The notes beneath the pieces are model-generated. The model was not told the origin of the DNA, searched no databases, and saw nothing but the letters and a program-made list of their open reading frames with translations. A stretch of DNA of 64,000 nt from the NCBI GenBank assembly GCA_041750285.1, contig JBGSZS010000002.1, forward strand, positions 76,910-140,909, written 5' to 3'. The position numbers and the translations under genes are program-made. Origin of the DNA: Candidatus Fermentibacteraceae bacterium. Lineage in GTDB: Bacteria > Fermentibacterota > Fermentibacteria > Fermentibacterales > JCC-6. Position 1 is the stretch's first letter. Every line of letters starts with the position of its first letter. Shown in pieces: positions 14,513 to 32,638 of the stretch.

Positions 14513-14595
14513 TTTCACCGCCTTTCGGAGAATGGAATATAACCGAATGCCGCAGTTTGCTTGCGGCTCTTTTCCTTTCAAAGTATTCTTCGGCC

Positions 14596-17596: not shown

Positions 17597-17657
17597 GTTT
17601 TCGGTCCGGCAGTCCCTTATATTCCCGCTTCACAACCTGCCGGAACGGAAAAAACCT

Positions 17658-18443
17658 GTGCGCATAGCGGTGATAAGCGACATTCACGGCAACATTCCCG
17701 CGCTGGAAGCTGCGTGGCGGTCCGTTGCGACGTTTTCCCCCGACATGACGGTCTGCCTGGGAGACCTGGTCCAGTTCGGGCCTTCGCCGGACCAGGCGGT
17801 TTCGTTCATACGAACCCACGGGATCGAAACGGTCCAGGGCAACTGCGACAGGGCCGCCGGCCGTGGACGGACCGACAGCGGTGACGAGTTCGAAAACCCG
17901 CACTGGCGAAAGCTTGCCGCTGAAACGCTTCGCTGGACCCGTGAGAATCTCTCCCCCGAATCGATCGCTTTCCTCAGGGGTCTTCCCGACGGAAAACGCT
18001 TTCTCCTCGACAGACAGAGCACCCTTTTCGTTCACGGTCAGCCAGGCAGGCTGAACGAGGGCCTCCCCGCTGAAACCGCCCACGAGGTCCACGACATGGT
18101 GCTCAGCCGCAACGACTGCAGGATTCTGGTCTGCGGACACACCCATGAGCCCATGGTGGTGAGAAGGCCGGGAGGGATCATCGTGAACCCCGGCGGTGTG
18201 GGGGTTGGAACCCGCCCCGGCGGCGGAACTCTGGCCGTCATCGACATTGGGAACGGGATCGAACCCGTGGTCGAGATCGTGGGTTTCGACTACGACATCA
18301 GAGCGCTCGAGCTGGATTTCAGGGATTCAGGAATTCCCGAGACTTTCTATCACTGCGCAAGGCTCGGGAGGGATCCAAGGGGGCCTTGGCACACCGAAGA
18401 CCCCCGCCTGAGGCAGGAGTGGGCAAGGTTAGTCCCGCTTTGA
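17658..18443 (+). CDS. Calcineurin-like metallophosphoesterase (YfcE/MJ0936 type)
   Basis: ISDIHGN, CLGD, GNCD, VHG, GHTH, NPGGVG. Confidence 0.9.
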   Translation: MRIAVISDIHGNIPALEAAWRSVATFSPDMTVCLGDLVQFGPSPDQAVSFIRTHGIETVQGNCDRAAGRGRTDSGDEFENPHWRKLAAETLRWTRENLSPESIAFLRGLPDGKRFLLDRQSTLFVHGQPGRLNEGLPAETAHEVHDMVLSRNDCRILVCGHTHEPMVVRRPGGIIVNPGGVGVGTRPGGGTLAVIDIGNGIEPVVEIVGFDYDIRALELDFRDSGIPETFYHCARLGRDPRGPWHTEDPRLRQEWARLVPL

Positions 18444-19860
18444 CGCCTTTCGCCTGCGGTTCATCTTCCTGATCCGGGAATCCCCGGGGCGGCCAGATCT
18501 CGTCGGAGATGATGACTCCCTTCCAGGTCCTGTAATACATAATCTCCTCAATGACTTCCATTCGCGGCATCGAGAAAACCCCGTGGTTCGCCGCTATCCA
18601 CGAAAGGGAGTGGAGCAGGCCGGTGAAGGCCAGGAAAAGCACGGCGAGGGTCATGGCGCCGGAACGGCGCAGCAGGAGCAGGTTTCTCCATGCCAGCACC
18701 GAGGGCGGTATCGCAGCCACGGCAATCAGATTCCAGTCGAAATAGGGTCCGAGCCCCAGCCGCCATCCGTATGCCATCGCAAGGAAGCCCGCCGAAGCGG
18801 CTCCCAGAAACCGGTTGAAACCGTCGTTCTTCATGTTCCCGGTCAGGATGAGAACGATCGGCACCCACCAGAAGGGGAACAGGAGGAACAGAACACTCGT
18901 GACCGCGTTGTAGTAGGTGATCGATGGTCGCGCAAGCATGTCGATGGTTGTCCGGTCCACTCCCGAGCCCATGAAATGGCTGTTCTGGAGGTTACGGAAG
19001 TCAAGCCCGCTGTATGCGGCGATAATGAAGACCAGAAAAAGTACCGTGAGCATCACGGCAACCGATGCCGCGACATGAGCCCGGGCTTTCATCCTCCACG
19101 CCCTGATCCACAGGAGAAGGTGCGCCGGCATCATGCACAGGGCCAACAGGTGCATGGACATCGCAAGCGCCAGCACAAGGCTTGGCGTGACGACACTGAG
19201 CCGGTCGTCGAGGTATTCCCGGGAAACCAAGATGTATGCCATGCAGAGGGTCATCACTCCTGCGTAGTTCTCGACGTCCCCGAAGAATGCCTGCATGAAC
19301 CCCCCCGAGACCATCAGCAGAACGAAGAAGGGCCACCTTCGGCCGAGTTCGCGGCATGCGAACAGGACGGTTGCCAGCACGAAGATGAACCCCATTCCCG
19401 ACGAATAAGCCGAATACACATCAAACGGATTGAAGCGAACGGGATCGCCGAAGGTCTGCCAGATCGACCGGATGACCGAGCAGGAAAGCATTTCGTCGAA
19501 AGTTGCCCTGAATCCGCCGCACAGAAGGTTGAACGTGTGCACCAGGCCGTCATCGTTGACGAATCCGTTCGAAAGGGCAAGGAAGACGAAGAGGGCAGGG
19601 ACTGCGACTGCGATGGAGTACAGGGCGGCCCTTTTGAAGGGGACGGGATCGTTGTCCGGCAGCTGACGCCCCGTTTTTTTCACGAGGAGGAACACACCGG
19701 CAAAGACGACGAAGATGCCCAGCAAAGTCACCGGCGCCGTGTGCCTGAGCTGATTGAAACCGTAGCGCGGTGATTCCGAAAGGTACGCTGAGTAGAGGTA
19801 GAACGAAAGCTGCAGGGCAGTGAGAACAATGATCGGGATGGCGGGGTTCTTCTTTTTCAT
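18319..19860 (-). CDS. Polytopic membrane protein, possibly GT-C-fold glycosyltransferase-like
   Basis: About 11-12 hydrophobic segments; acidic loop NDDG after the early helices, FFGDVENY, MSMHL, FDWNL. Confidence 0.65.
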   Translation of the reverse strand: MKKKNPAIPIIVLTALQLSFYLYSAYLSESPRYGFNQLRHTAPVTLLGIFVVFAGVFLLVKKTGRQLPDNDPVPFKRAALYSIAVAVPALFVFLALSNGFVNDDGLVHTFNLLCGGFRATFDEMLSCSVIRSIWQTFGDPVRFNPFDVYSAYSSGMGFIFVLATVLFACRELGRRWPFFVLLMVSGGFMQAFFGDVENYAGVMTLCMAYILVSREYLDDRLSVVTPSLVLALAMSMHLLALCMMPAHLLLWIRAWRMKARAHVAASVAVMLTVLFLVFIIAAYSGLDFRNLQNSHFMGSGVDRTTIDMLARPSITYYNAVTSVLFLLFPFWWVPIVLILTGNMKNDGFNRFLGAASAGFLAMAYGWRLGLGPYFDWNLIAVAAIPPSVLAWRNLLLLRRSGAMTLAVLFLAFTGLLHSLSWIAANHGVFSMPRMEVIEEIMYYRTWKGVIISDEIWPPRGFPDQEDEPQAKGVKAGLTLPTPASGGGLRCAKAPLDPSRALRSDRKSREFLNP

Positions 19861-19954
19861 GGAGCTATACTATCTGTTCATCAGACCACGAAGCAATGTT
19901 ACGGCAAACGTCTCTGAAGTCGATTGATCGCCCGACGAGCGGAAGGGTCCAGGG

Positions 19955-22105
19955 TTGAGGGAAGTAGAGACCGTCTGCAGCACGCCTCCCGGGTGTCATT
20001 GCGGCTGCGGTGTGTGCCTCGGCGTTTGCGGCGGCAGGGTCACGGGTGTCAGGGGAAACCCCTCGAATCCGTACAACCGGGGTTACATGTGCCGAAGGGG
20101 GCTTGCGGTCACCGGCACGCTCTACAATCCCGACCGTGTGCTTCATCCCATGGTCCGCAGCAGGGCGGGGGCATGGCGAAAAGCCTCCTGGAAGGAAGCC
20201 CTCGGTCGTGCAGCCGATTCCTTTCTCAGTGCCCGTGAGAAACTCGGACCGCGTTCCGTTCTCTTCATGAAAGGGACGGGCCGGGACATCGGCCCCTGGC
20301 TTTCACGTCTCGCATACGGTTTCGGAACCCCCGAGTATTACGCCCTGGGGCCGGGTTCGGGTTCCGCCTGCCTGATGCCGCGGATGAGCGTGTGCGCTTC
20401 GGTTTTCGGGGGCTGGTTCACGGCCGACTGCTCCCAGTACTTCCCCGACAGGTACGACAATCCATCCTGGAGGCTTCCCGAGTGCATCCTGGTCTGGGGC
20501 TCGAACCCCATTGTTTCGAACCCCGACGGTTTTCTGGGGAAGTGGATAATGGACTGCATCAGGATGGGGTCCAAACTGGTGGTGGTGGACCCCAGGAACA
20601 CATGGCTTGCCGGAAGGGCCGATGTTCACCTGAGGTTAAGGCCGGGCACCGACGGAGCTCTTGCCATGGCTTTTGTCAACAGGATGCATGCCACCGGGAA
20701 CTGGGACCACGATTTCGCCGGCAAATGGGTAAGCGGCTCGGAGGAGACCTTTCTGGCCTGCTCGTCATGGAGCCCCGAATCCGCTTCACGCGAGTGCGGA
20801 ATCCCCTCCGAAAGCATAATCAGGGGGGCCGACCTCTGGCTCAACGCCTCGCCGGGCGCTCTTCAATGGGGCGTGTCGGTTGACATGAGCGCTTCGGCTC
20901 TGGGTACGGCCCACGCGCTGACCTCACTCGTGGCACTTTCGGGGAACCTGGATGTGCCTGGAGGGTGCGTTGTTGTTTCGGACCCATTTGGCATTCCCAG
21001 GAGGGGAGGCCTTGAAGCTCCCCCCGGGAAGACGGGCGCATCGCTGTACCCCATGACAACAATGGGCTACCCCTACGCAAGTTCCGATGTCCTTCTCGAC
21101 GAAATGGAGGCGGGAAGGCATGTCGCCTGCGCCTGGGTGCAGGGCTCGGGGACCGTGGTGAACGGCTTCGCTGCTCCGGACAGGGCTGCCCGGCTCCTGT
21201 CGCGAATCGACGAGGTGGTTGTGTGCGACCTTTACATGACGACGACGGCCGAGCAGTTTGGAACGGTGTTCCTGCCTGTGGCGTGCTATCCTGAACGCAA
21301 CGGCATCCGAAACTGGTGGTACCAGCTTGCTGCCGTGAACAAGGCGGTCGAGCCGTTGGGTGAAGCCCGAAGCGACATGGAGATCATCCTGGATTTCGGC
21401 CGCAGGGTCGCACCCGGGCATTTTCCCTGGACAGACGTGGAGGGCTGGTTCGACCACGTCCTCGAGCCGTCGGGGATGAGCTGGAAAGAGCTGTCGGAAA
21501 GGGGATGGGTGATGCCCGGGATCATGTACGGGAAGCATGAATCGGGTCTCTCCAGATCCGACGGGGAACCGGGGTTCCCGACCCCTTCGGGGAAGGTCGA
21601 GCTTCAGCCGATGATAATGGAGAGGGCCGGTCTGCTTCCGGCCCCCTGGTACGTGCCTCCCCCGGCTCTCTCCGCAGCTTGCCCGCTCACGCTCACAACG
21701 GGGGCCAGGTCCCTGTTCTTCTTCCATTCCGAGCACAGGAACGTGCAGTGCCTTCTGGAGGGGAACCCGCTTCCACTTGTGGAGGTCAACCCAGTTGACG
21801 CCAGAGCCTGCGGCGTTCGCGAAGGGGAGTGGGTGACCCTGTCCTCACCCTGGGGAAGCTGCGGAAGGGTGGTCCGCATGACCGAAACGGTTCCGCCCGG
21901 CACCGTTATGGCCCAGCACGGATGGTGGCCCCCGGGGCTCCCCGAAGAGACGGGCCGGCTCCTGAACATCAACAACCTTCTGCCCGGGGGGATGCAGGGC
22001 AGGGGCGGGCTTGGTTACCCCTTCAGGTGCATTCCGTGCGGAATTGCGCCCGGACCGGCGCTTCTTCCCGTTCCAGAACCCGTCGAAAAGAACAGGGGAG
22101 ACTGA
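19955..22105 (+). CDS. Molybdopterin (bis-MGD) oxidoreductase, DMSO reductase family, resembling the catechol dehydroxylase/acetylene hydratase branch
   Basis: CSTPPGCHCGC..C Fe-S motif, GTGRD, SACLMPR, DRYDNP..VWGSNP..SNPDGF, RPGTDGALA, GFPTPSGKVEL, TTGAR..FHSEHR, QHGWW; no Tat signal. Confidence 0.85.
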   Translation: MREVETVCSTPPGCHCGCGVCLGVCGGRVTGVRGNPSNPYNRGYMCRRGLAVTGTLYNPDRVLHPMVRSRAGAWRKASWKEALGRAADSFLSAREKLGPRSVLFMKGTGRDIGPWLSRLAYGFGTPEYYALGPGSGSACLMPRMSVCASVFGGWFTADCSQYFPDRYDNPSWRLPECILVWGSNPIVSNPDGFLGKWIMDCIRMGSKLVVVDPRNTWLAGRADVHLRLRPGTDGALAMAFVNRMHATGNWDHDFAGKWVSGSEETFLACSSWSPESASRECGIPSESIIRGADLWLNASPGALQWGVSVDMSASALGTAHALTSLVALSGNLDVPGGCVVVSDPFGIPRRGGLEAPPGKTGASLYPMTTMGYPYASSDVLLDEMEAGRHVACAWVQGSGTVVNGFAAPDRAARLLSRIDEVVVCDLYMTTTAEQFGTVFLPVACYPERNGIRNWWYQLAAVNKAVEPLGEARSDMEIILDFGRRVAPGHFPWTDVEGWFDHVLEPSGMSWKELSERGWVMPGIMYGKHESGLSRSDGEPGFPTPSGKVELQPMIMERAGLLPAPWYVPPPALSAACPLTLTTGARSLFFFHSEHRNVQCLLEGNPLPLVEVNPVDARACGVREGEWVTLSSPWGSCGRVVRMTETVPPGTVMAQHGWWPPGLPEETGRLLNINNLLPGGMQGRGGLGYPFRCIPCGIAPGPALLPVPEPVEKNRGD

Positions 22106-22107
22106 AC

Positions 22108-22875
22108 ATGCAAGGGGATGGTGCTGTCCGTTCAATGGCGTCCGTACCGCAAAGGCTTGGATTTCGGACTGCGGGGTTGCGCGGAGTTCCGCTGGACCGG
22201 GCGCTGGGTATCATTGCCGAGGCAGAGTACGCCCTGGTCGAGTTCTGCATGGAGCATCGGGATGCGTCGTCCTACAATGGCAGCCTGGCGGGGCTTGGTG
22301 TGTCATCGGTGAGTTATCACGGGAAGAAAGACTCTCCCGATGTTCGTAAAAGAATGATCCGTTCGGCTGTCGGGAAGGCGTGTGATCTCGGAGCCGGGGT
22401 TCTGGTCCTCGGCTCTCCCCTGAGTTCCCTGTGCAGCCGCGAGGCCTTTTACGAGGAGTGCTCCAGCGTGATGAACCTTCTTCCAGAGGGAGTCAGACCG
22501 GCATGGGAACCCGAGCCCGGAACCGTTCTAAAGGATCTTTCGGCCTTCGGGGAACTGGCGGATCACCTGGGTTCGGAAGCCGGGCTCAACCTCGATTTCG
22601 GTCACGCCTTCCTCGACGGACTGAGCCCTTCCGGGGCGGTGCTTCAACATGGTTCAAAAATCCTTCATACGCATATTGAGGACGTTGCGCGCGGGGTCCA
22701 CGAACACCTCATACCCGGTCGGGGTGAGTTTCCATGGGAGTCTTTACTGTTGGCTCTTGATCATGCAAATTATGTGGGTCCTCTTATTGTTGATCTGTTC
22801 AAGATTCCAGACAATCCTGTTCCGTACGTCAAGGCTTCGTACCTCGGGGTTCTGGGCGCATTGGGGGATGCATGA
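22108..22875 (+). CDS. Sugar phosphate isomerase/epimerase (AP endonuclease 2 TIM barrel)
   Basis: WEPEPG, LNLDFGH, HTHIEDV..HEHLIPGRGE metal-binding motifs. Confidence 0.8.
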   Translation: MQGDGAVRSMASVPQRLGFRTAGLRGVPLDRALGIIAEAEYALVEFCMEHRDASSYNGSLAGLGVSSVSYHGKKDSPDVRKRMIRSAVGKACDLGAGVLVLGSPLSSLCSREAFYEECSSVMNLLPEGVRPAWEPEPGTVLKDLSAFGELADHLGSEAGLNLDFGHAFLDGLSPSGAVLQHGSKILHTHIEDVARGVHEHLIPGRGEFPWESLLLALDHANYVGPLIVDLFKIPDNPVPYVKASYLGVLGALGDA

Positions 22876-23906
22876 CTGCAAAGGGTTACTCCATCGGGGT
22901 CGGTCTCACCTCCGCCTGTCCTTTCTCGTGCAGTCACTGCTATTCGGGGGCAGGCCGTAATCCTGTTGATCTTGATCCCTCAAGGCTGTTCCGCTTCATG
23001 GACGGCTTTCCTGTTTCGGCAATAAACCTCGGAACGGGTGAATCGTGCATGCACCCGCAGTTTCTGCCCGTTGTGAACGAGATACTCGATCGCGGCGTCC
23101 CCCTGGCGCTGACAACGGCCGGTCCCAGCCTTTCTGCGCTGCCTGACGAAACACTGGCCAGGCTGCATGACGTCGACCTTTCACTCGATTATCCGCTTGC
23201 AGGGCTTCATGACGCGGTGAGGGCTCCGGGGGCTTTCGGCATGGTTCTCGATGGTATCGAGCGATGCAGGGAACTCGGTGTGACGGTCTCACTTGCCATG
23301 TGTCTCATGAAGGGCAATGCGGAACACATGGAGGGCATGTGCCGGTTTGCCCGCAGACTTGGCATTTCCATCCGTGTCAACGTTTACAAGCCCGTTTTCG
23401 GTAACGGCCCGAAGCCTTCCTTCCATTCGTTCTGGAACTCTGTCTCGACGCTCTTCAGGGAGACGAAGGTCGTTTCCTGCTCCGAGCCCGTGGTAAGCGC
23501 CGCACTTGCCTGCCACGGCAATCCCTGCGCAACGGAAGGATCACCCTGCGGGGTTCACGGTTTCAGGATCTCCCCGGGTGGTGAGGTCCTGCCGTGCGTG
23601 TACTGGGGGTCAACGGGGATCAGCATGGAGCGGGTCATCGACGAGCCTGGGCTTCTGGAAGCGTGCGGAATGATGTGTCATGGTGCTGCGCTTCCCGCCG
23701 AGTGTTCGGAATGCCCCTGGAAGGGCGTCTGTGCGGGCGGGTGCGCCGGGCGAAGGTATTACACCGGGCTTGACCGCCCTGACGAGTACTGCTTTCACCT
23801 GAGGGGCGTTCGTCCCCCGGAACTTGAACCAGCTTCGGGAACCGGCGAAGGCTTCATCCACGCCGGGTACCTGTGCACCATGATCGGCTGTCCAATTGAA
23901 AGCTGA
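22872..23906 (+). CDS. Radical SAM/SPASM domain protein
   Basis: CPFSCSHC, LGTGE, HDAVR; SPASM CG..ISPGGEVLPCVY, CSECPWKGVCAGGC..C; extra C-terminal YLCT. Confidence 0.9.
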   Translation: MTAKGYSIGVGLTSACPFSCSHCYSGAGRNPVDLDPSRLFRFMDGFPVSAINLGTGESCMHPQFLPVVNEILDRGVPLALTTAGPSLSALPDETLARLHDVDLSLDYPLAGLHDAVRAPGAFGMVLDGIERCRELGVTVSLAMCLMKGNAEHMEGMCRFARRLGISIRVNVYKPVFGNGPKPSFHSFWNSVSTLFRETKVVSCSEPVVSAALACHGNPCATEGSPCGVHGFRISPGGEVLPCVYWGSTGISMERVIDEPGLLEACGMMCHGAALPAECSECPWKGVCAGGCAGRRYYTGLDRPDEYCFHLRGVRPPELEPASGTGEGFIHAGYLCTMIGCPIES

Positions 23907-25194
23907 CGCTTTTCTCCATCGGTTCGTCTCACCCCGGGGAGTGTGCGCCGTTTTCAACGCACTCACGCTCGAGTTGACAACCGATACCGGAAGCCCGTCT
24001 CCATTCGATCCTGAAGCCGTTCTGGCAAGCTACAGGAGGTTCTGTTCATCTCCTCCGGTCTCCATGGCCACTTTTTTCGTGACCGGCGACTGCCCCAGGA
24101 AATGCGGCTACTGCTTCGTACCCGGCACGCTGGGAACCATGACCGCCACCGAGGTCGATCACGGGCTTGAAATGCTCTCGGACCTTGCACCCGGAAAGGC
24201 TGACATACTCATATACGGCGGTGAACCGCTTCTCAAGCCGGAGATCGTTCTGCGGATAATCCGGGGAACGGGGGATGACCGCAATCTGTGCCTGGCCACT
24301 GGCGGATGGGATGTCTCCCGGGAGCTGGCCTGTGCACTGGCGGAACGCAACGGATTCGTGATCGTCAGCATCGACGGCGCAAGTGACGTCCACAACGATC
24401 TGCGGCCGCTTTCGGAAGGTGACTCTTACCGGTCCGCCGTACGGACGTTCCACGCTTTCCGGGATGCAGGTTGCCGGGTCGGGATCAGTCTGACGGTCAC
24501 CAAGGGGAATGCCCGCAGGGTGAGGGATGATTTCACATTCCTTTTGGACACCCTGAAACCCGATGACATGGGACTTAACGCATGGATGCACCCAAAGCCC
24601 GGCCTCGGTGCGAATCCGTTCGAGGCTCGCTGGGAGGATGTGTTCGATGCCGTAACCGGTTGTCTCTCCGATGCCCTTTCCGCGGGGATGTACGTGGAGC
24701 AGCTCTTTCGGCGGCTCAGACCGCTGGTCACACGCTCACCAAGGCTCAGGGACTGCCCCTCCAGGGGTGGCAGGCTCGTTTTCGTTCCGGGAGGCAGAGT
24801 GAGCCCGTGTGACTGCATGGCAGCCGCGGGAGTGAATGCTGTCAATGACAGGAAAGGGATACTGGAGCTTCTCTCCGACTTTTCCAGGCTGGTCCCCGTT
24901 TTCAGGGAAGGGTGCCTTTCCTGCCCCTGTGTTGCACTTTGCGGCGGCGGGTGCCTTTACGACGTGCTTGCGTGCACCGGTTGCCTTTCCGGTGTCAGGG
25001 AGGAGCGGTGCAGGTACGAGAGGGCCCTTCTGGGGTGGATGGTGGGCACCATTCTTGATGACCAGCCCCGGGACAGGGCACCCGGGATCCTGTCCATCGG
25101 GGAGATGACAGCTTTTCTCCCCGGGGGAATCCTCGACAAGGCCAGGATGCCGCAACCCGAGGCCATGCTTGGGGGGGAGATGACATGCCTGTGA
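23896..25194 (+). CDS. Radical SAM/SPASM domain protein
   Basis: CPRKCGYC, YGGEPLL, VSIDG; SPASM DCPSRGG..SPC, CLSCPCVALCGGGC..C. Confidence 0.9.
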   Translation: MKADAFLHRFVSPRGVCAVFNALTLELTTDTGSPSPFDPEAVLASYRRFCSSPPVSMATFFVTGDCPRKCGYCFVPGTLGTMTATEVDHGLEMLSDLAPGKADILIYGGEPLLKPEIVLRIIRGTGDDRNLCLATGGWDVSRELACALAERNGFVIVSIDGASDVHNDLRPLSEGDSYRSAVRTFHAFRDAGCRVGISLTVTKGNARRVRDDFTFLLDTLKPDDMGLNAWMHPKPGLGANPFEARWEDVFDAVTGCLSDALSAGMYVEQLFRRLRPLVTRSPRLRDCPSRGGRLVFVPGGRVSPCDCMAAAGVNAVNDRKGILELLSDFSRLVPVFREGCLSCPCVALCGGGCLYDVLACTGCLSGVREERCRYERALLGWMVGTILDDQPRDRAPGILSIGEMTAFLPGGILDKARMPQPEAMLGGEMTCL

Positions 25195-26360
25195 CGGGCT
25201 GGGTCGAATTGAGGGACAACTGCTTTGTGAACCCTTTCTCAGTCGAGTTCTTCTTTGGCGGGATTCCCCCGCTGGACGGGCCGTTCTCGCCGCCACCAGA
25301 ACCACCTCTGCGGATCAGGGCAGTTCAGGCGGTTGTCACCGGCAGGTGCAACCTCTTGTGCACCTACTGCAGTGCCCGGATCGCGGGGGGGTTCGAGGGC
25401 GACATGGAACCCGCCACCTTCGATGCGGTTCTGTCACACTCCCATCCTGATTCGCTGCTTCTGGTGACCGGGGGCGAACCGCTCCTTCACCCGGCGGCAG
25501 TGAGAACCCTTATCAGGGGCTGGAGCGGCCAGGCCGTTCTTTTCACCAACGGGTCACTTCTTGACAGGGAGACCGTCCAGTTCCTGAAGGAACACGGTAC
25601 GGCACTTGTCGTCTCAATGGATGGCTTCGAGAGGGAACACAACCTCTATAGGGGCGATTCCTGGAAGGCCGCAGCCGCAGCCCTCGATCTGGCACGGGAA
25701 AATGGATTGCCCGCCGGGATCTCACTGGTTGCAGGGTCCCATAACGCAGGTTCACTGCCGGAATGCCTCTACGGGATTCTGGAAAGGTTCGGGCCCTCGA
25801 GTTTCGGTATAAACATTCAGCACTACACCCCTCATTCCTTTTCGCCCATCAGTGCCGATGAGTATTCAAGGATCATCCTCGGTGCATACAGGTTCAGCCT
25901 TGAAACGGGTGTGTTCGTCGACCAGGTTGCAAGGAGGCTGCTGCCAGTCGTTACGGGGCTTTTCCGGCACAGGGACTGCGCAGCCCAGGGCGGGAAGATC
26001 GTGTTCCATCCTGACGGCTCCGTCAGCAGTTGTGTTAACACAAGGGGAATCGAGGAGTGGGGAAGCAGAAATCCTGTTAACTGCCCTTTTTGCCGGGGTT
26101 GCCCCGCCCTTGGCATCTGCGGCGGAGGGTGCACCTGGGACGGAATTCACCTGGCCCCGGAAGGATGTGGTCCCGACCCGAGAAACTGCGTCTGGACGCT
26201 CGACCTTCTCAGAGCAGTCAGTGAAACCGTGGAGGAGAGGCTTCCCCGCTCCGTCGTTCGACCCTCACGCGAATTCCTTGCCTCCCTGTTCGAAAACCTC
26301 TGCAGAAGGGCAGGATCGCCACTCGCGCAATCGCTGGGGCATGGAGAGGAAGACCGGTGA
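25185..26360 (+). CDS. Radical SAM/SPASM domain protein (paralog of the upstream gene)
   Basis: CNLLCTYC, TGGEPLL, FTNG, VSMDG; DCAAQGG..SSC, CRGCPALGICGGGC..C. Confidence 0.9.
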   Translation: MPVTGWVELRDNCFVNPFSVEFFFGGIPPLDGPFSPPPEPPLRIRAVQAVVTGRCNLLCTYCSARIAGGFEGDMEPATFDAVLSHSHPDSLLLVTGGEPLLHPAAVRTLIRGWSGQAVLFTNGSLLDRETVQFLKEHGTALVVSMDGFEREHNLYRGDSWKAAAAALDLARENGLPAGISLVAGSHNAGSLPECLYGILERFGPSSFGINIQHYTPHSFSPISADEYSRIILGAYRFSLETGVFVDQVARRLLPVVTGLFRHRDCAAQGGKIVFHPDGSVSSCVNTRGIEEWGSRNPVNCPFCRGCPALGICGGGCTWDGIHLAPEGCGPDPRNCVWTLDLLRAVSETVEERLPRSVVRPSREFLASLFENLCRRAGSPLAQSLGHGEEDR

Positions 26361-26968
26361 AGGGCTGGAGCCGGGAAAAGGTTGAGGCGTATTCCGGGGG
26401 AAGACGTTCTTCGCCTGCCGATGACTGGGTGGTTGACGCCCTTCGGGGGAGGGAACGGGTTCTTGAACTGGGTTGTGGTCCGGCACTGGCATCCGGCAGG
26501 CTTTCAGCACCACTGCTGGTGTGCACCGACATCACCGAGGGCTTTCTGCCCGTGGCGAAAGTTAACGCACCTGCGTCAACAGTCCTTTGTGCGGATCCTG
26601 TGACGTTGCCGTTCCAGGACGGGGTGTTCGACAGCGTTCTTGCCATGGCGGTGCTTCATCACCTTGAAAGGTCGTGCCTCGATGCGGCTCTCAAGGAATC
26701 ATGGCGCGTTCTGGACCCACGGGGCTGGTTCCTTCTGCTTGAGGACTGGTCCTTCACCGATCCCACCCCGGTCGAACTGGAAGCGAAACAGCAGCGGTTT
26801 GAAAAAGGCCACGACGAGTTCCACCTGACCTGGGCAGAATGGGACGAAGCTTTTAAAAAAGCAGGATTCGGGCTTTTGAGACGGCAATGGCCCGAAAGAC
26901 GGTTTGGCGACCCCTCCGGTGGAAGAAGCGTGAGGATGATGGCCGCCCTTTACTCGAGGCTGTCCTGA
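26357..26968 (+). CDS. Class I SAM-dependent methyltransferase
   Basis: VLELGCGP, LPFQDGVFDSV, VLHHL, RVLDPRG. Confidence 0.88.
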   Translation: MKGWSREKVEAYSGGRRSSPADDWVVDALRGRERVLELGCGPALASGRLSAPLLVCTDITEGFLPVAKVNAPASTVLCADPVTLPFQDGVFDSVLAMAVLHHLERSCLDAALKESWRVLDPRGWFLLLEDWSFTDPTPVELEAKQQRFEKGHDEFHLTWAEWDEAFKKAGFGLLRRQWPERRFGDPSGGRSVRMMAALYSRLS

Positions 26969-28113
26969 AGACGCTCCTGGTTCAATCATGGCTGGGGCGG
27001 GCACAGCATCCTGTTGTGCCTCTGGGATTGCTTTCCGTGGCATCTTCAATGGGGTCGGGCAACGTCGAGGTCCTTGACCTCAACGTCGTGGATGGTCCCC
27101 TGAGATTCCTCGCAGAAAGGCTTGATTCCCTGAAGCCCGACATGGTGGGCATTTCCCTTCGGAATGCCGACACCACGAACTTTTTTGATCCTTTCAGCTA
27201 TCTGCCCGCTTTTCTGGAACAGGTTCGCATCGTCGCTGAAAGGGCTCCACGGGCTCAAATCCTGGCCGGGGGGGCGGGTTACAGCCTCTTCCGCAGCGAG
27301 CTTGACGCTGAAGCACGCGTGATCAGCGCCGGGACGGTCGGCCATTACGAACGAAGCATTCCACAGCCCTGCTGGGACCTGATCGATCTTGAGCCCTACC
27401 TTCCGTTCCAGAAAAACCTGTCGATTGGTGTTGAAGTCAGCCGGGGCTGTGACCTCAAGTGCTCATACTGTGTTTACCCATCATTGTCCGGGGCGCACAA
27501 GCAGGACAAACCCCCTGAATCCATCCGTTCCGAAGTGCTTATGTTGAAAGCCAGGGGAGCAGGGCACCTGTTCCTGTCCGCCCCGGTTCTAAACCACAGG
27601 CCGGGCAGGGGCATGGAAGTGGCACAGGCTATGGCCGTAACGGGAGTGACCTGGGAGGCCTACCACTCTCCGCTGGGTTTTTCGGAAGAATACGCCATCA
27701 TGGCCCGGGAATCGGGATGTACATCGGTCAGTTTCAGTCCCGACGGCGGAAGCGATTTCGACATGAAAGCCATCGGGAAGGACTTCACAACCCGCGATAT
27801 GGAGACCGCGATCGGAAACGCCGCCCGGGCCGGCCTCAAAGTGTGCATTGGCCTGTTTCCCTACCTGCCCTGGTCATCTCCAGTGTCAATGATCCGGGCG
27901 TTCATCACGGGACGGAAGTGGGGAGAACTGGCCGGAACCCGTCTTGCACGATTGCGCTTCAGCGCTGTGAGAAGGCTTCCGGGAAGCATGTTCGGTCCGG
28001 GCAGACCCGCGCTTCATGGAGCAGTTCCCCCTTGCGAGTTCGTTTTGCCCCGAAAGCCATGGACTGCCGTATTCAGGCTCTTCAGGGCGGCATTTGAAAA
28101 GAGGCTGGGTTGA
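26965..28113 (+). CDS. Cobalamin-binding radical SAM protein
   Basis: B12-domain PLGL..DLN..PDMVGISLRN..GGAGYS, then SRGCDLKCSYCVYP; probable CTG start overlapping the upstream TGA. Confidence 0.85.
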   Translation: MKTLLVQSWLGRAQHPVVPLGLLSVASSMGSGNVEVLDLNVVDGPLRFLAERLDSLKPDMVGISLRNADTTNFFDPFSYLPAFLEQVRIVAERAPRAQILAGGAGYSLFRSELDAEARVISAGTVGHYERSIPQPCWDLIDLEPYLPFQKNLSIGVEVSRGCDLKCSYCVYPSLSGAHKQDKPPESIRSEVLMLKARGAGHLFLSAPVLNHRPGRGMEVAQAMAVTGVTWEAYHSPLGFSEEYAIMARESGCTSVSFSPDGGSDFDMKAIGKDFTTRDMETAIGNAARAGLKVCIGLFPYLPWSSPVSMIRAFITGRKWGELAGTRLARLRFSAVRRLPGSMFGPGRPALHGAVPPCEFVLPRKPWTAVFRLFRAAFEKRLG

Positions 28114-28585
28114 TCTCCGTGTCGGTCTCTTCCAATCTGGATACCAGTATTCCGGAGAACTCCGAGTCCCTTCGCAGGACCTGTCCGACTCCCGCCTTTC
28201 CCGACCAGGCAAGCCGCAGGGTCGCAACGACCGTTCCGGTGGAGAGGACCGTGAGCTCCCCGGGTGGGCCGTATTTCGGAAGAAGATCCAATGGAAATGC
28301 GAACGGAGCGCAGGAACTGAAGAGGTGGCCGCCGCGAAGGGTGTAAAGGAAGTAGGGAAGCCTTGCTTCGACGATCGTTTCGAACCTTATCGTGTGGAAG
28401 CCGCTTCCGCCGTCCCTGAAAGCCCCGGCCCAAAGCTTTTTTCCGGACACGACCTTGAAGAAGCTTTCGATTGGCCTTTCCCTGCGAATGGAAAGCGGGG
28501 AAACTGGAAACTGCGTCTCCAAGTCATTTGATCCTTCGGGAGTCCGTATTTCGGTTGCGTACCCTTTTTCCTTTACTCCCAGCAT
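28082..28585 (-). CDS. Hypothetical protein
   Basis: ATG preceded by GGGAGG; protein-like composition, no recognised motif. Confidence 0.5.
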   Translation of the reverse strand: MLGVKEKGYATEIRTPEGSNDLETQFPVSPLSIRRERPIESFFKVVSGKKLWAGAFRDGGSGFHTIRFETIVEARLPYFLYTLRGGHLFSSCAPFAFPLDLLPKYGPPGELTVLSTGTVVATLRLAWSGKAGVGQVLRRDSEFSGILVSRLEETDTEINPASFQMPP

Positions 28586-28650
28586 GCGCCCCTCCCTTGA
28601 TTGCGCCATAATGGAGGGGTTCTGTTAAGGATGTGTTTCCCGTATGTGAA

Positions 28651-28680
28651 TTGACTTTCACGCACGCTGTTCCTTATTGT
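28651..28680 (+). promoter_or_regulatory. Putative sigma70 promoter for the NTP-transferase operon
   Basis: TTGACT (28651-28656), 18 nt, TATTGT (28675-28680). Confidence 0.45.
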
Positions 28681-28744
28681 CATTCTTGACAGGGTCTGCC
28701 CGAGATCACCCGAACCTTTCTACTTACCAAGTACTTATGAGAAA

Positions 28745-29458
28745 ATGACTTACTTCAATAATCTCCAATACCTTGGTCCGTCCCCGATCATTCTCGCGGC
28801 TGGTGCGGGCAGGCGGATGGGCGGGGTGGAGAAGGCATGCCTGAAGGTCGGTGGGAGAACCCTTCTGGAGAGGCACTTCGGAAACTTCGCAGAACTGGGT
28901 CTCAATGCGGAAAGGGTTTCGGTCGTCTACGGCACCGAAGGGGTGCTGCGGGAGACGGAAAGACTTGGCGGCAGGCCGGTTAAGTCGGGTTCGGCCGGCG
29001 CTGAGGGAACACTGGGTTCCTTCATGGCGTGTTTTCCGCCGGGTGACTGCCTCGTGGTCCACGGCGACCTGCTCTGGGAAGCTGACATGGCCCGGGCAGC
29101 GATGATGTGTACCGCCGACGCCGTGATACCCGTCGATCCCCGTTCGGCTGACCGCGAGGCCATGAAGGCCGAGGTCCGCGACGGACTTCTTGTCGGGCTG
29201 TCCAAGGAAATGAGGCCCGAGGTGTGCTCGGGTGAATCGATGGGCATTTTCCTTTTCCGAAAAGCTGCTCTGCCCGACCTGCTGACCTGTTGTGCAGAGG
29301 CGAGGGAACGGTTCGGCAGCCGGGCTGCGCTCGATGACGCGGTGACCCTTCTCGCGAGGATCAGGAAGGTTGCAGTGGTCTTCATCTCGGGAAGCAGGTG
29401 GGACGAGGTCGATACCCCGGACGACCTCGCAAGGGCTGAGAGAGTCTTCCATGGATGA
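28745..29458 (+). CDS. Nucleotidyltransferase (LicC/IPCT-like cytidylyltransferase)
   Basis: IILAAGAGRRMG..K, VHGDLL, EAMK, GESMGI, WDEVDTPDDL. Confidence 0.85.
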   Translation: MTYFNNLQYLGPSPIILAAGAGRRMGGVEKACLKVGGRTLLERHFGNFAELGLNAERVSVVYGTEGVLRETERLGGRPVKSGSAGAEGTLGSFMACFPPGDCLVVHGDLLWEADMARAAMMCTADAVIPVDPRSADREAMKAEVRDGLLVGLSKEMRPEVCSGESMGIFLFRKAALPDLLTCCAEARERFGSRAALDDAVTLLARIRKVAVVFISGSRWDEVDTPDDLARAERVFHG

Positions 29459-30206
29459 GATCAATGCGTGGGACCAGGTCTGGAGGGATTTCCCAACCCG
29501 GAGCCCGTTGCACGGGCTGGGAGAGTTCCTCTCCCGCCGGGCCGAACTGAAGAGGCTCGTTCTGGCAGAGCTGTTTCGGGGGGGACGGGTGCCCCGGGAT
29601 GGTGCTGTTCTTGAGGCCGGATGCGGGACGGGCAGTGTGATGGGCCTTCTTGCCGAGAGGGGTTTTCGCGTTGCAGGTGTCGATCTTTCCCCCGAAGCGC
29701 TGGTGCATGCCTCGTCTCATTCCAGCGAGCTCTCGGTCGCCACGGTCACCAGCCTGCCCTTCGCGGATGGAACCTTCGACCTGGTGTACAGCACCGGAGT
29801 ATTCGATCTTCTTGACGATTCCGACCTTTCCGCTGCGTTGGGGGAGGCGCTTCGGGTGACTGTCCCGGGTGGGCGCATCGTTCTGATCAATGCAGCACCC
29901 TGCCCGCTTCACCGCAGGGTCATGCGCCGGCTCGAGAGCAGGAACAGGTGGAGGTACGGTCCCAAGAGGGAGATCGAATCGCTTTCCGGGATCGTGCTGG
30001 GCCACCGCCCCGACGCCCTGGTGACAGAGAAGGGAAGGGGCTTCGCCCTTCAGCTGAGATTCCTTGTATACCTTGTGGAGCACCGGCCGCTTCTCCGCAG
30101 GCTGGCCCACGGTCTGTTCATGCTCGTCTCGATGCTTCTTTGGCCACTGAACGCGTTGCCGGGGATGGTGCTGGTCACAACGGTGCGGCTGCCGGAGGAG
30201 GCCTGA
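29451..30206 (+). CDS. Class I SAM-dependent methyltransferase
   Basis: VLEAGCGTG, GVDLS, LPFADGTFDLVYS, RVTVPGG. Confidence 0.88.
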   Translation: MDEINAWDQVWRDFPTRSPLHGLGEFLSRRAELKRLVLAELFRGGRVPRDGAVLEAGCGTGSVMGLLAERGFRVAGVDLSPEALVHASSHSSELSVATVTSLPFADGTFDLVYSTGVFDLLDDSDLSAALGEALRVTVPGGRIVLINAAPCPLHRRVMRRLESRNRWRYGPKREIESLSGIVLGHRPDALVTEKGRGFALQLRFLVYLVEHRPLLRRLAHGLFMLVSMLLWPLNALPGMVLVTTVRLPEEA

Positions 30207-30958
30207 TGAAGTCCATACGGGAATTGAGAAGCATCTGCCAGCCTCCCGGTCTGGACATGTGCCTCTACAGAAGGTTCGTGATCAGACCCGTGAGCATCCA
30301 TCTCTCGAGGTTGTTCATCGCTGCGGGAATAGGGGCTGACACGGTTTCGATCCTCAAGGGGATCATCGCCATGGCCGGGGCGGTGCTCTTCGGTCTGCGG
30401 CCCATTCCCGCCGCCCTTCTCCTCCAGTTTTCCTATCTCCTCGACGCCTGCGACGGCGAAGTGGCACGCTTCACCGGAAGCTGCTCACGAGCCAGGGGCG
30501 AGTACATCGACAAGCTGGGAGATGCTGGTTCCCGCAGTCTTTTCCATCTCTCCTGGGGGATCGGCGCCTTCCTTGCCGGGGGAGGTTGGCCCGCCCTTGC
30601 AGCCGGGGCGGTCGTGGGATGCCTTTGGCTCACCGTGAGGTTCTGCTCTGTAGAAACGCTTCTGGAAAGTTATTCGAACCATTCGGGCTCCGAGGGAACG
30701 GCAGGAGAGAAATCAGCGCTGGAAAGGCTTTTTGTCAGGAAACCCGGGTCGGGAAGGATCGAACACTTCTTCTCGCTCCTCATCCACCCTTGGGTGAACC
30801 TTGCTCTGCTGGCTGCAGCCGCTTCCCTCATCACGTACCGGGGAGTCTCCGGCCTGACGGCCCTTCTGTGGGCATACACCGCGCTCTGGGTGGCAAACAC
30901 CGTTCGCAAGGTCATCACCTGCGCCGAAGTGATGAACTTTCCCCGACACGGCCAGTGA
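30206..30958 (+). CDS. CDP-alcohol phosphatidyltransferase family
   Basis: Signature LDACDGEVARF..GEYIDKLGD plus multiple TM helices. Confidence 0.88.
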   Translation: MKSIRELRSICQPPGLDMCLYRRFVIRPVSIHLSRLFIAAGIGADTVSILKGIIAMAGAVLFGLRPIPAALLLQFSYLLDACDGEVARFTGSCSRARGEYIDKLGDAGSRSLFHLSWGIGAFLAGGGWPALAAGAVVGCLWLTVRFCSVETLLESYSNHSGSEGTAGEKSALERLFVRKPGSGRIEHFFSLLIHPWVNLALLAAAASLITYRGVSGLTALLWAYTALWVANTVRKVITCAEVMNFPRHGQ

Positions 30959-31938
30959 ACGGGCTTCTTGCCTTACTGGGCGCGGTTCTGGCCGTTATCG
31001 GCTCGGGTGCTGACAGGGCTTTGCTCCTCTCCGGCACACCGGTGGGCATCACAGCCCTCGGAGGGGAGTACTGGCTGGTTTCATGCGTGGCACCGGCAGG
31101 TGTATTCCTCGTTGACAGAAGTGCCTGGACAGTTCTGGAGTACCCCGGCTCTTTCAGTGAGCCACAGGGGACAGGGCTGCTCGAAGGGGAACCTCTGGTA
31201 TGCGACCGGGGAGCGAACCGGCTTCATCTTGGATTGCCAGGTGCCTCCAGGGCGCTGCTGATTCCGGGGGGCCCTTTTTCCGTGACTGCGGCGGACTTGA
31301 CCGGGAAGGGGGAATTGTTTTCAGTGGTTACGCTGAGGGATTCGGGTCGGGTTGTCCTTCTTACGGATACAGGTACGGTTGAGCTGGCTGCGCTGCCGGG
31401 AGCCCGGATGGCTGCGGCGGCCGACACCGACTGCAACGGCGACGATGAGCTGTTTGTGGCATGCTGCGGTACGGGGCTCCATCTCGTTGCAGTCATTGAA
31501 GAAGATGGCGGTCCCGTTGAGCGTCGAATCGGTGTTCTTGGGGACGGTGTGAAGGGAGTTGCTTCCGCGGACATTGACGATGACGGAGACCCCGATGCAG
31601 TAGGGATAGCATGCGCGGAGGGTGGCGTGTGCTGGTGGGAGAATCCCGGACCGACAGGGTCGGAATGGTTCAGGCACGACCTTGATCCCGGGGTCTCGGG
31701 CCCCAAATCCATCGCGGTTTTCGGCGGGAATATCCTTGTCGCGGCGCTTTTCAGCCCTTCAATGCTCTACTGCCCGGGCGGGACCCGTTCCCTTCCGACA
31801 GGTTGCACGGCATGTGCATTCGACGATGACGGAGCATTCGTCCTGGGGCATCGTGCGGGTTTCATCATGGAGTTCCAGGCTCCCACCGGGCTTACAATGA
31901 CTGATCGGCACTATTCTGAAGTTATTGTATGTCAATGA
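30955..31938 (+). CDS. Exported FG-GAP repeat protein
   Basis: Hydrophobic N-terminus; DLTGKG, DTDCNGDDEL, DIDDDGDPD, WWENPG motifs; Cys-rich. Confidence 0.65.
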   Translation: MNGLLALLGAVLAVIGSGADRALLLSGTPVGITALGGEYWLVSCVAPAGVFLVDRSAWTVLEYPGSFSEPQGTGLLEGEPLVCDRGANRLHLGLPGASRALLIPGGPFSVTAADLTGKGELFSVVTLRDSGRVVLLTDTGTVELAALPGARMAAAADTDCNGDDELFVACCGTGLHLVAVIEEDGGPVERRIGVLGDGVKGVASADIDDDGDPDAVGIACAEGGVCWWENPGPTGSEWFRHDLDPGVSGPKSIAVFGGNILVAALFSPSMLYCPGGTRSLPTGCTACAFDDDGAFVLGHRAGFIMEFQAPTGLTMTDRHYSEVIVCQ

Positions 31939-31961
31939 TATGCCTTATCAATCTAAGTTAT

Positions 31962-32636
31962 CTAAGTCCGTCCCCCATCCATCAGCCCGCGTTCCCTGAG
32001 GCTGATCACTCCGGAGTCGGTCACGATGAAATGGTCGAGCACGCGGAAGCCAAGCTCGTCACCGAGCTTCGTGAGGGCCCTGGTGAGGGATAGGTCCTGC
32101 GGGCTCGCCTCGAGCCGGCCGCCGGGGTGGTTGTGTACCAGGATGACCCCCGTGGCGTTGTGGGCGATCACCTTTTCAACGAGGTTCCTGGGGTGCACCG
32201 TTGCCCTGTCGACGGTTCCGAACTCAAGTTCGGCCTCGGACAGCAGCCTGTTGTCCTGGTCGAGGAGGAAGGCGCAGAACAGCTCCTTCCTGCGGGTTCC
32301 CAGGCGTGTCTTCAGGTAGTCCCTCACGACTTCCGGGCCAGTGATCTGCAGTCTGCCCCTTTCGGGGGTCAGGGCCATCGAGTTCATGGAATGTACCAGC
32401 GTTATGAGCGCGGCCGCCGAAGGCCCCACGCCCTCAACCGTCTGAAGGTTGTCCGGTGACTGCCTCAGAGTGTTCCCGAGGGTTCCGAACCTTTCCAGAA
32501 GGGCTGAGGAAAGCTGCCTGGTGTCACGGCGGGGTGCGGCGTAGGTCAGGAGCAGTTCAAGGGCCTCCCGCTGGGTGAAACCCCCTATGCCGACGCGCAG
32601 GAGCCTGTTCCTGAGCCTCTCCCTGTGGCCCTCCAC
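31962..32636 (-). CDS. radC: RadC/UPF0758 JAB-domain protein
   Basis: GHRERLR, ELLL, VEGVGP HhH, GTVDRATVHPR, HNHPGG..SPQD, LDHFIV; GTG start at 32636. Confidence 0.92.
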   Translation of the reverse strand: MEGHRERLRNRLLRVGIGGFTQREALELLLTYAAPRRDTRQLSSALLERFGTLGNTLRQSPDNLQTVEGVGPSAAALITLVHSMNSMALTPERGRLQITGPEVVRDYLKTRLGTRRKELFCAFLLDQDNRLLSEAELEFGTVDRATVHPRNLVEKVIAHNATGVILVHNHPGGRLEASPQDLSLTRALTKLGDELGFRVLDHFIVTDSGVISLRERGLMDGGRT

Positions 32637-32638
32637 CC

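Follow-up and report, generated by a model that had tools for sequence, protein, structure and literature searches.

A stretch of 64,000 nucleotides from a Candidatus Fermentibacteraceae bacterium (contig JBGSZS010000002.1; the whole stretch is referred to as the window) carries eleven co-oriented genes, here named A-G and I-L, between positions 19955 and 31938, with one interruption by a gene on the minus strand, H. The genes code for a molybdenum or tungsten (Mo/W) enzyme, a triosephosphate isomerase (TIM) barrel, four radical S-adenosylmethionine (SAM) enzymes, two methyltransferases, a nucleotidyltransferase, a CDP-alcohol phosphotransferase and a putative beta-propeller, and may together encode an anoxic pathway for a CDP-activated alcohol. 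The features of the region, with gene starts adjusted by comparison with orthologues, are the following:

X, 18319..19860, minus strand: polytopic membrane protein, divergent neighbour (hydropathy)
A, 19955..22105, plus strand: Mo/W enzyme of the bis-pyranopterin guanine dinucleotide (bis-PGD) type (PF00384, PF01568, PF04879)
B, 22108..22875, plus strand: xylose-isomerase-like TIM barrel (PF01261)
C, 22872..23906, plus strand: radical SAM/SPASM protein, 344 amino acids (aa) (PF04055, TIGR04085)
D, 23896..25194, plus strand: radical SAM protein with SPASM-like Cys-rich C-terminus, 432 aa (PF04055)
E, 25185..26360, plus strand: radical SAM protein, paralogue of D, 391 aa (PF04055)
F, 26357..26968, plus strand: soluble class I SAM methyltransferase (Methyltransf_11)
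G, 26962..28113, plus strand: radical SAM protein with B12-binding-like N-terminal domain, 383 aa (PF04055)
H, 28082..28609, minus strand: accessory gene between G and I (codon-position substitution bias)
Promoter-like site upstream of I, 28651..28680, plus strand: weak, 9 of 12 consensus positions
I, 28745..29458, plus strand: nucleotidyltransferase resembling inositol-phosphate cytidylyltransferase (IPCT) (NTP_transf_3)
J, 29451..30206, plus strand: class I SAM methyltransferase with C-terminal hydrophobic anchor (Methyltransf_11, hydropathy)
K, 30206..30958, plus strand: CDP-alcohol phosphotransferase, multi-pass membrane protein (PF01066)
L, 30955..31938, plus strand: FG-GAP/VCBS-like beta-propeller with N-terminal hydrophobic signal or anchor, start overlapping the end of K

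The preliminary description of this DNA had read seven abutting or overlapping genes at 19955-28113 and a second coupled block at 28745-31938, and in the list of open reading frames (ORFs) of the window the genes are found at these positions, with coordinates and junctions confirmed. The first block (A-G) has junctions of +2, -4, -11, -10, -4 and -7 bases and the second (I-L) of -8, -1 and -4 bases, and the gap of 631 bases between G and I holds the antisense ORF H. Pfam returned every domain that had been named for A-K, all of the enzyme classes listed being present; L, though the last coupled gene, had been left out of the title of that description. No gene of the cluster reaches a curated equivalog cut-off in NCBIfam, all such matches being far below. 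An Rfam scan of positions 17500-33000 at E ≤ 1 gave zero matches, thus no riboswitch or other RNA accounts for the gap between G and I. A scan for promoters and terminators gave counts at or below chance; three promoter-like sites were seen in the region against 2.7 expected by chance, and the site upstream of I is not significant.

When analysing codon use, the preference for T-ending codons noticed earlier proved to be real but modest. The frequency of T at third codon positions (T3) is 0.192 in the 11 cluster genes compared with 0.138 in 33 flank genes (Mann-Whitney p = 2e-4), and the G+C content at the same positions (GC3) is 0.676 compared with 0.746 (Mann-Whitney p = 5e-4). Lower GC3 and higher T3 of the cluster were also found in six out of six syntenic relatives, and the cluster proteins diverge faster than the flank proteins (mean identity 61–84% and 76–92%, respectively). 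Recent horizontal import as the source of the shift was rejected since the offset is present in all six relatives; the offset is therefore old, without sign of recent import, which argues for an old vertical inheritance of the cluster.

One scan with an alignment of G over 185,579 species genomes resulted in 23 loci (cited by L numbers). Twenty-one are of Fermentibacterota type, judged by titles or by 41–83% identity to G, two of these being contig ends of one metagenome-assembled genome (MAG), and the remaining two hold distant G homologues (28% identity) from Desulfobacterales/Desulfosarcina. Within the phylum the homologues come from Candidatus Fermentibacteraceae, Aegiribacteria and Sabulitectum. 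The gene order, read by tblastn of all window proteins, revealed that B-G are collinear in every spanning locus with one exception (L019, without F) and that G is followed by co-directional I, J and K in 18 of the 18 loci reaching past its end, three further loci that stop at or inside G being excluded from this count. The distance between G and I is 14–17 bases in seven loci of Aegiribacteria/Sabulitectum type (L006, L007, L009, L010, L013, L015 and L018) and also in the partial copy L020, 92–124 bases in four loci and approximately 365–640 bases in five loci with H or a remnant of H. The flanking genes are shared only among the closest relatives and differ in the Aegiribacteria/Sabulitectum-type loci; since the flanks change while the cluster stays, the cluster is kept as a unit independent of its surroundings.

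That the two blocks belong together had been a conjecture, and their adjacency and common direction in all 18 informative loci bear it out; instead of being scattered, the genes are collinear in the related loci fetched. A-G and I-L very probably constitute one operon, i.e. a conserved transcription-unit-like block. Matches to G number 43 at 254 bits or more and then fall to 106 bits, and those to K number 41 at 108 bits or more, followed by one at 51 bits. The G family appears to occur almost only in this phylum, and the operon was found only in Candidatus Fermentibacterota among the genomes scanned and is predicted to be vertically inherited. The operon of Candidatus Sabulitectum silens JCC-6 (L020 and L022) is broken across two contig ends inside G, and the alignments of D, E, F and J cover just 58–69% of their length, which suggests assembly errors or decay in the draft genome. 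In L014, a Sabulitectum MAG, a 1.7-kb insertion separates G and I; the 505-aa protein that it encodes (7439-8956) combines beta-propeller repeats with a C-terminal sorting domain for type IX secretion.

The antisense gene reported between the blocks is real. When H was compared with its copies in L001, L004 and L003, the substitutions at codon positions 1/2/3 numbered 22/19/50, 17/13/41 and 45/46/80, a pattern resembling that of G and I, and the possibility of a spurious ORF was rejected on account of this bias to the third position. The gene gave no match in Pfam or NCBIfam. Copies occur in the window and in L001, L003, L004 and L005; L008 has a truncated one, and neither L002 nor any compact (Aegiribacteria/Sabulitectum-type) locus carries the gene. 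The earlier picture of two blocks is thereby corrected, H being an accessory, lineage-specific insertion that split an ancestral single operon.

The proposed pair of a cytidylyltransferase and a CDP-alcohol phosphotransferase was recovered in I and K, both of which are IPCT/DIPPS-like. I matches NTP_transf_3 in Pfam with 56.6 bits, and its best NCBIfam match is the bifunctional IPCT/DIPPS (NF041135; 47 bits against a cut-off of 580); the I orthologue of L009 scores 60 bits in a full-length alignment to the IPCT half of the same model. Its best solved relative is the IPCT of A. fulgidus (2xme, E = 1e-6, compared with 8e-3 for MobA), and I is a nucleotidyltransferase closest to inositol-phosphate cytidylyltransferase. 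K scores 23.4 bits with PF01066 (CDP-OH_P_transf, cut-off 22), has several hydrophobic segments and contains the motif D80-x2-D83-G84-x2-A87-R88-x9-G98-x3-D102-x3-D106, invariant in 13 of 13 aligned orthologues. Signature, membrane segments and Pfam score thus all agree with a CDP-alcohol phosphotransferase, the active site of which is intact. The best solved relatives of K are AF2299 (4o6m) and IPCT/DIPPS (4mnd), and its scores are below the equivalog cut-offs of both NF041135 (26 bits, cut-off 580) and the archaetidylinositol-phosphate synthase (AIPS) model NF040950 (36–40 bits, cut-off 180).

An exhaustive profile search among 1.84 billion sequences gave seven representatives of the K orthogroup at E ≤ 1e-30 and approximately 1,400 at E ≤ 1e-10. 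All 11 of the next-ranked relatives scanned are closest to AIPS, PIPS or DIPPS, below the cut-offs; Pfam recognises ten of them as CDP-alcohol phosphotransferases, and one of the 11 is fused to a GINT1_N domain. L matches FG-GAP_3 with 21.2 bits in the window and 30.6 bits in the L009 orthologue, and its look-alikes in a language-model atlas are FG-GAP/VCBS clusters (0.93–0.95). Residues 1–25 are hydrophobic, and the gene is located downstream of K, directly or after an additional gene M (see below), in 14 of 15 loci extending beyond K, L018 being without it. L is predicted to be exported and belongs to the unit.

All four radical SAM proteins, C, D, E and G, match PF04055 with 46–56 bits (cut-off 29.5), which places them in the radical SAM superfamily, and the CxxxCxxC motif can be read in their translations; among the orthologues it is invariant for G and nearly so for C. 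In C, downstream Cys residues are invariant in 14 sequences and the SPASM domain TIGR04085 scores 29.5 bits (cut-off 27). Foldseek places the cytosyl-sugar decarboxylase BlsE (7vob, E = 3.9e-12) first for C, ahead of SuiB, SkfB, anSME, viperins and DesII. D and E are paralogues (32% identity, E = 3e-34) with a C-terminus of the type CxxCx(5-8)CxxxC, identified by eye, and no scoring match to the 7-Cys SPASM domain (TIGR04085/PF13186); the NCBIfam matches of D are all at or below 56 bits against cut-offs of at least 225, and its solved-structure matches, SkfB and anSME, are weak. A role of the radical SAM enzymes as maturases of A was rejected since the radical SAM genes persist in three loci without A.

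For G, the start at 26962 is backed by full-length alignment of the orthologues. The B12-binding domain PF02310 scores 27.7 bits in the window, below the cut-off of 32.1, and is listed for many orthologues. NCBIfam gave BzaD (122–127 bits, cut-off 450) and TIGR04072 (113–144 bits, cut-off 360), and the best solved relative is AprD4 (6fd2, E = 2e-9), which we take to be a non-methylating diol dehydratase; C-methylation by G is therefore not assured. The preliminary description had named B12-dependent radical SAM enzymes as methylators of unactivated carbon or phosphorus, a role that is in doubt for G.

A contains the three domains Molybdopterin, Molydop_binding and Molybdop_Fe4S4, all above the Pfam cut-offs, and a conserved candidate metal ligand, C139, which aligns with the ligand Cys of Psr and FdhF and is, together with P142 and R143, invariant in 16 sequences; this is the make-up of the DMSO-reductase (bis-PGD) family. 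An N-terminal Cys cluster forms a [4Fe-4S] motif. No hydrophobic N-terminal segment was found by hydropathy and no twin-arginine signal at the N-terminus by eye, and A is predicted to be a soluble, cytoplasmic Mo/W enzyme. Compared as a single sequence, A comes closest among the solved structures to acetylene hydratase (2e7z, E = 1.3e-43), and the family profile gives 335 bits with acetylene hydratase compared with 289 for FdhF and 276 for Psr. The best NCBIfam match is Fdh-alpha (195.6 bits, cut-off 666), and thiosulfate reductase scores 163 bits (cut-off 694). In formate dehydrogenase a His follows the ligand Cys or Sec, and in A the residue after C139 is Leu; a formate dehydrogenase or thiosulfate reductase was rejected on the cut-offs and on this residue.

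Unlike G and K, the A family reaches outside the phylum, with matches at 47% identity and at 44% to a Zixibacteria protein, and a Gordonibacter molybdoenzyme shares 38% identity with A across 96% of the length. As presented in the available text of PMC7028382, the catechol dehydroxylases are closest to acetylene hydratase, the Gordonibacter-type dehydroxylase is small, has no twin-arginine translocation (TAT) signal and is paired with a small 4Fe-4S protein, and a dehydroxylase homologue is required for CC-1065 biosynthesis; membership of the clade requires there that an enzyme be closer to acetylene hydratase and the characterised dehydroxylases than to any other characterised enzyme with bis-molybdopterin guanine dinucleotide (bis-MGD), and that its identity to Cldh or Dadh exceed 30% at E ≤ 1e-34. 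Most A orthologues are 763–826 aa long and end in a tail, CxxCxxCxxxC...CxxCx4CxxxC, which scores as a 4Fe-4S dicluster domain (two-cluster ferredoxin) with up to 29.9 bits (cut-off 27). The tail is seen at the 3' end of A in L002, L008, L009 and L012 and among proteins P0052-P0073. It has been lost from the A of the window and its two closest relatives (P0050 and P0051), a lineage in which a separate electron carrier would be needed. P0067 (1017 aa, from a cluster with 8 members) is a natural fusion of A and B. The molybdoenzyme named earlier is thus present and can be refined, by its closest solved relative, to a putative member of an acetylene-hydratase/dehydroxylase-like branch, usually ferredoxin-fused and absent in three of 16 loci.

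B reaches 59.9 bits with PF01261 (cut-off 31.1) and misses the IolE equivalog cut-off (26.7 bits against 290). Residues E134, D163, H189 and E191 are invariant in 13 sequences, and the AF2 model (pLDDT 93) has SCO6571, IolI, ketose 3-epimerases, IolE, UlaE and, at rank 38, AsbF as Foldseek neighbours, all members of one family with B. Pfam score, fold and the E/D/H/E metal site agree with a xylose-isomerase-like TIM barrel, and B is predicted to be a metal-dependent isomerase, epimerase or dehydratase. The methyltransferases F and J match Methyltransf_11 with 59.9 and 73.3 bits, respectively, and J has a hydrophobic segment at residues 218–242.

Four loci carry a sahR-like gene, coding for an ArsR helix-turn-helix (HTH) joined to a methyltransferase-like domain, together with ahcY, the gene of S-adenosylhomocysteine (SAH) hydrolase, directly upstream on the same strand:

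sahR-ahcY pair, operon strand: L012 550-2879; L018 453-2806; L016 2704-5063; L017 2801-5160

In L016 and L017, where A is missing, the pair abuts B. The two-domain make-up is presumably that of SahR. SahR is an SAH-responsive regulator with ahcY as its core target, according to the available text of PMC4239095. The upstream ahcY fits a pathway with heavy SAM consumption. An arsenic-related reading of the ArsR-methyltransferase and of weak ArsM matches was rejected, as the HTH-methyltransferase beside ahcY fits SahR and the ArsM matches are generic class I methyltransferase matches far below the cut-offs.

Taken as a whole, the operon may encode an oxygen-independent CDP-alcohol small-molecule pathway, a reading to which we assign a probability of about 0.5. 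We infer that the product is a CDP-activated, radical-SAM-tailored alcohol-phosphate, moved by K to a membrane acceptor, perhaps as a polyol, sugar or lipid head group. In such a pathway I would activate a phosphorylated alcohol with CTP to give a CDP-alcohol, and the free or CDP-linked alcohol would be tailored by C, D, E and G through hydrogen abstraction, dehydration, methylation or ring chemistry. Tailoring while nucleotide-linked is probable, with precedents in BlsE, DesII and viperin, and Fom3-type chemistry is a further one; the action of BlsE on a cytosine-linked sugar and of AprD4 on an aminoglycoside sugar was likewise counted for small-molecule tailoring. B would isomerise or dehydrate next to a carbonyl, A could then carry out a ferredoxin-driven reductive C-O step or a hydration, and F and the membrane-anchored J would add methyl groups. 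Finally, the phospho-alcohol would be handed by K to a membrane acceptor with a hydroxyl group, and L would act outside the cytoplasm.

The alcohol could, as a best guess, be a six-membered polyhydroxy ring, inositol-like or inositol-derived, because four independent weak signals point the same way: I towards IPCT, K towards AIPS, PIPS and DIPPS, B towards IolE, IolI and AsbF, and A towards acetylene hydratase and the catechol dehydroxylases. Somewhat more doubtful is the most specific form of the idea, a phylum-specific, O2-independently tailored carbocyclic phospho-head group, deoxygenated and C/O-methylated, that would be inositol-derived or cyclised by the radical SAM enzymes.

Several observations weigh against the proposed pathway or against its details. 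The signals towards a ring polyol are each weak, being scores of 25–60 bits or generic fold matches, and I also has weak MobA/MocA matches. The AF2 model of C is of moderate confidence (pLDDT 78), and the best NCBIfam matches of D and E are peptide maturases. In the nearest context outside the phylum, a Desulfobacterales MAG (L021, 5900-9402), a distant G homologue of 449 aa with B12-binding and radical SAM domains (28% identity) comes immediately after a 718-aa fusion of two ketoacyl synthases, with PlsY nearby; such a lipid-type setting would suit the tail of a lipid better than its head group. A is absent in three of the 16 loci showing the region upstream of B (L014, L016 and L017), F in L019 and L in L018, so that these steps would be dispensable or encoded elsewhere. 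The cluster contains no inositol-phosphate synthase, kinase, phosphatase, glycosyltransferase or lipid-building gene, which makes the starting alcohol and the acceptor guesses, and no gene reaches an equivalog cut-off.

Some of the same evidence could also be read as the operon making a soluble phosphodiester compatible solute, like di-myo-inositol phosphate (DIP), and not an envelope component. AF2299 and IPCT/DIPPS, closest to K, use soluble CDP-alcohols, the product of DIPPS is soluble and, as said, no lipid-building gene is present. This would, however, leave a membrane-anchored J and an exported L that is translationally coupled to K; moreover, the cluster is found in candidate genera from digester and marine settings with no obvious tie to salt or heat, and such heavy tailoring is unusual for an osmolyte. 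We consider a solute unlikely.

Slightly less likely still is an aromatic or cofactor-like product, e.g. a methylated and methoxylated benzenoid, linked through phosphate, for which B would dehydrate a ring polyol, A dehydroxylate a catechol, and G, F and J methylate. The closeness of A to acetylene hydratase, a branch said to hold catechol dehydroxylases, speaks for it, as do the presence of AsbF, a catechol-making TIM-barrel dehydratase, among the fold neighbours of B and the top NCBIfam match of G in the window, the ring C-methylase BzaD. These similarities are all far below the family cut-offs, however, A is missing in three loci that keep everything else, and we know of no CDP-alcohol phosphotransferase that takes phenols.

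The best NCBIfam matches of D and E, peptide maturases such as FibroRumin, PapB and HxsB, and the presence of SkfB, SuiB and anSME among the fold and sequence neighbours would suit a third alternative, where C, D and E serve in the maturation of peptides or proteins, acting on a ribosomally synthesised and post-translationally modified peptide (RiPP) or on A or L, and I and K are unrelated to them. The intergenic gaps in the compact loci are, on the other hand, all approximately 75 bases or less and leave no room for a precursor gene, no conserved small ORF is found beside the cluster and the flanks differ between clades, so a precursor gene next to the maturases, as expected of a RiPP cluster, was not seen in the compact loci and flanks examined. 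The radical SAM genes also persist without A (L014, L016 and L017) and without L (L018), and the matches are at most 72 bits against cut-offs of 265–650, all of which makes a maturation system improbable. That the two blocks are independent neighbours, or that the set is catabolic, e.g. for anaerobic polyol breakdown by A, B and the radical SAM enzymes, is very improbable and largely refuted by synteny: the 631-base gap with its antisense gene and the catabolic dehydroxylases among the relatives of A would fit, but all 18 informative loci have the blocks side by side in one direction, seven of them with a gap of 14–17 bases, H is a lineage-specific insertion, and the presence of a cytidylyltransferase, a CDP-alcohol phosphotransferase and two methyltransferases, with an SAH hydrolase adjacent, points to anabolism.

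Around the operon, the divergent upstream gene X had been called polytopic and GT-C-like. Hydropathy shows about ten hydrophobic segments, in line with the first term, and X has zero Pfam or NCBIfam matches. The likeness to GT-C or PMT proteins comes from atlas look-alikes only (unnamed clusters at 0.98; PMT/TMEM260/GT87-like clusters at 0.94–0.95) and is a lead, not a test. X is located upstream in just three relatives, L001, L003 and L005, its place being taken by Wzy_C proteins in L002 and L004 and by a carbamoyltransferase in L008, and it is probably not a core part of the operon. Between K and L an additional gene, M, coding for a protein of 172–197 aa that is MobA-like in Pfam, was found in four loci:

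M, between K and L: L008 13705-14223; L009 13399-13926; L012 13287-13880; L013 6935-7462

MobA is the best NCBIfam match in three of the three copies scanned (57–61 bits, cut-off 151.85), and M is predicted to be MobA-like, below the MobA equivalog cut-off. At the same position L014 has an ORF of the same size (11190-11717), seen as an ORF only. The occurrence of M does not track that of A, since L014 has the ORF without A and L010 and L018 have A without M. In L010, from Aegiribacteria, the minus strand at 14312-16418 carries genes for a methyltransferase of 268 aa and a radical SAM protein of 432 aa, both pointing towards the end of the operon.

The rest of the window codes for ordinary functions, among them EF-G, penicillin-binding proteins, alanine racemase, signal peptidase and C25 peptidase. 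A separate radical SAM/SPASM pair (352 and 347 aa) at 57426-59485 on the minus strand resembles ScmF and ScmE of the SynChlorMet cassette (229.8 and 147.5 bits, cut-off 400), and the ORFs beside it, 59837-61105 and 56211-56981, gave no family match. FG-GAP and peptidase C25 (gingipain-like) genes are found at 1018-1896 and 3085-4320 of the window and at 81-2594 in L009, the latter with a secretion-tail domain; they fit a secretion system in the phylum of the type known from the Fibrobacteres-Chlorobi-Bacteroidetes (FCB) group. Three long ORFs with GC content at first codon positions (GC1) of 0.76–0.84 and low GC3 (61293-63920 and 1985-3118 on the minus strand, 55376-56320 on the plus strand) may be mere shadows of genes that lie in another frame or on the opposite strand.

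To our knowledge Fermentibacterota are anaerobic fermenters without a cultured member, and nothing is known of their envelope chemistry. They are common in anaerobic digesters (PMC5030696) and widespread, with a marine-sediment member (PMC5763382), as far as the available text of these two papers goes. Neither there nor in further literature on Fermentibacteria and on this enzyme combination, in the text available, was a published description of the cluster found, in line with the preliminary description, which knew of no such pathway; nor does any of the genes map to a known pathway, all NCBIfam scores being far below the cut-offs. The transfer end is of a known kind, with IPCT/DIPPS or Kennedy-like logic, and no described counterpart was found for the tailoring half, consisting of three SPASM-type enzymes, a B12-domain radical SAM protein, a ferredoxin-fused acetylene-hydratase-like Mo/W enzyme with a TIM barrel, and two methyltransferases.

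With eleven to twelve genes retained across a phylum and next to no occurrence beyond it, the operon is a strong candidate for the synthesis of a lineage-defining molecule. Should this molecule be a lipid head group, geochemists and microbiologists working on digesters would gain a specific marker, and an anoxic tailoring toolkit would be added to the simple scheme of a cytidylyltransferase plus a phosphotransferase. A carbocyclic head group, if true, would be a new lipid or envelope class and a biomarker for an uncultured phylum. It would also mean the first soluble molybdoenzyme of the acetylene-hydratase/dehydroxylase type, with a fused TIM barrel, that builds rather than degrades a polyhydroxy ring. 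The fusions of A with B and with ferredoxin are direct handles for biochemistry on this uncharacterised molybdoenzyme branch.

Among known systems, the IPCT/DIPPS of Archaeoglobus and Thermococcales (2xme, 4mnd) and AF2299 (4o6m) share with I and K the logic of cytidylylating a soluble alcohol phosphate, which a small CDP-alcohol phosphotransferase with several membrane passes thereafter transfers. In contrast to IPCT/DIPPS, I and K score 26–60 bits against the cut-off of 580, are separate genes with a methyltransferase between them, occur in a mesophilic bacterial phylum and are accompanied by eight coupled tailoring enzymes that the DIP pathway lacks. In Bacteroides, an NTP transferase and a CDP-alcohol phosphotransferase are proposed, without confirmation, to make inositol lipids via CDP-inositol (available text of PMC9246714). 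The Bacteroides vulgatus cluster described there is similar in making the CDP-alcohol first and transferring it to a lipid thereafter, and in its host from the FCB superphylum; the likeness to I and K is one of logic. It differs in having a haloacid dehalogenase (HAD) hydrolase and an adjoining inositol-phosphate synthase and no radical SAM, Mo or methyltransferase genes.

Of the radical SAM enzymes, G has TIGR04072, named 'lipid biosynthesis B12-binding/radical SAM protein' in NCBIfam, and BzaD as top NCBIfam matches; it differs from both in scoring far below their cut-offs and in being shorter (383 aa), and no ketoacyl synthase is found near the Fermentibacterota loci. With BlsE, AprD4, DesII and viperin the similarity lies in BlsE as best fold match of C and AprD4 as best sequence match of G, and C and BlsE are of similar size, both with a SPASM/twitch-type C-terminus, but the identities are 12–21%, no pathway genes are common and peptide maturases score almost equally. 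A, finally, shares with the catechol dehydroxylases and acetylene hydratase the lack of a TAT signal, a size of approximately 720–800 aa and a 4Fe-4S partner module, fused in the A orthologues, its tentative placement being made via acetylene hydratase and the unnamed Gordonibacter enzyme. Unlike the catechol dehydroxylases, A is located in an anabolic operon and is, in some genomes, fused to a sugar-type TIM barrel.

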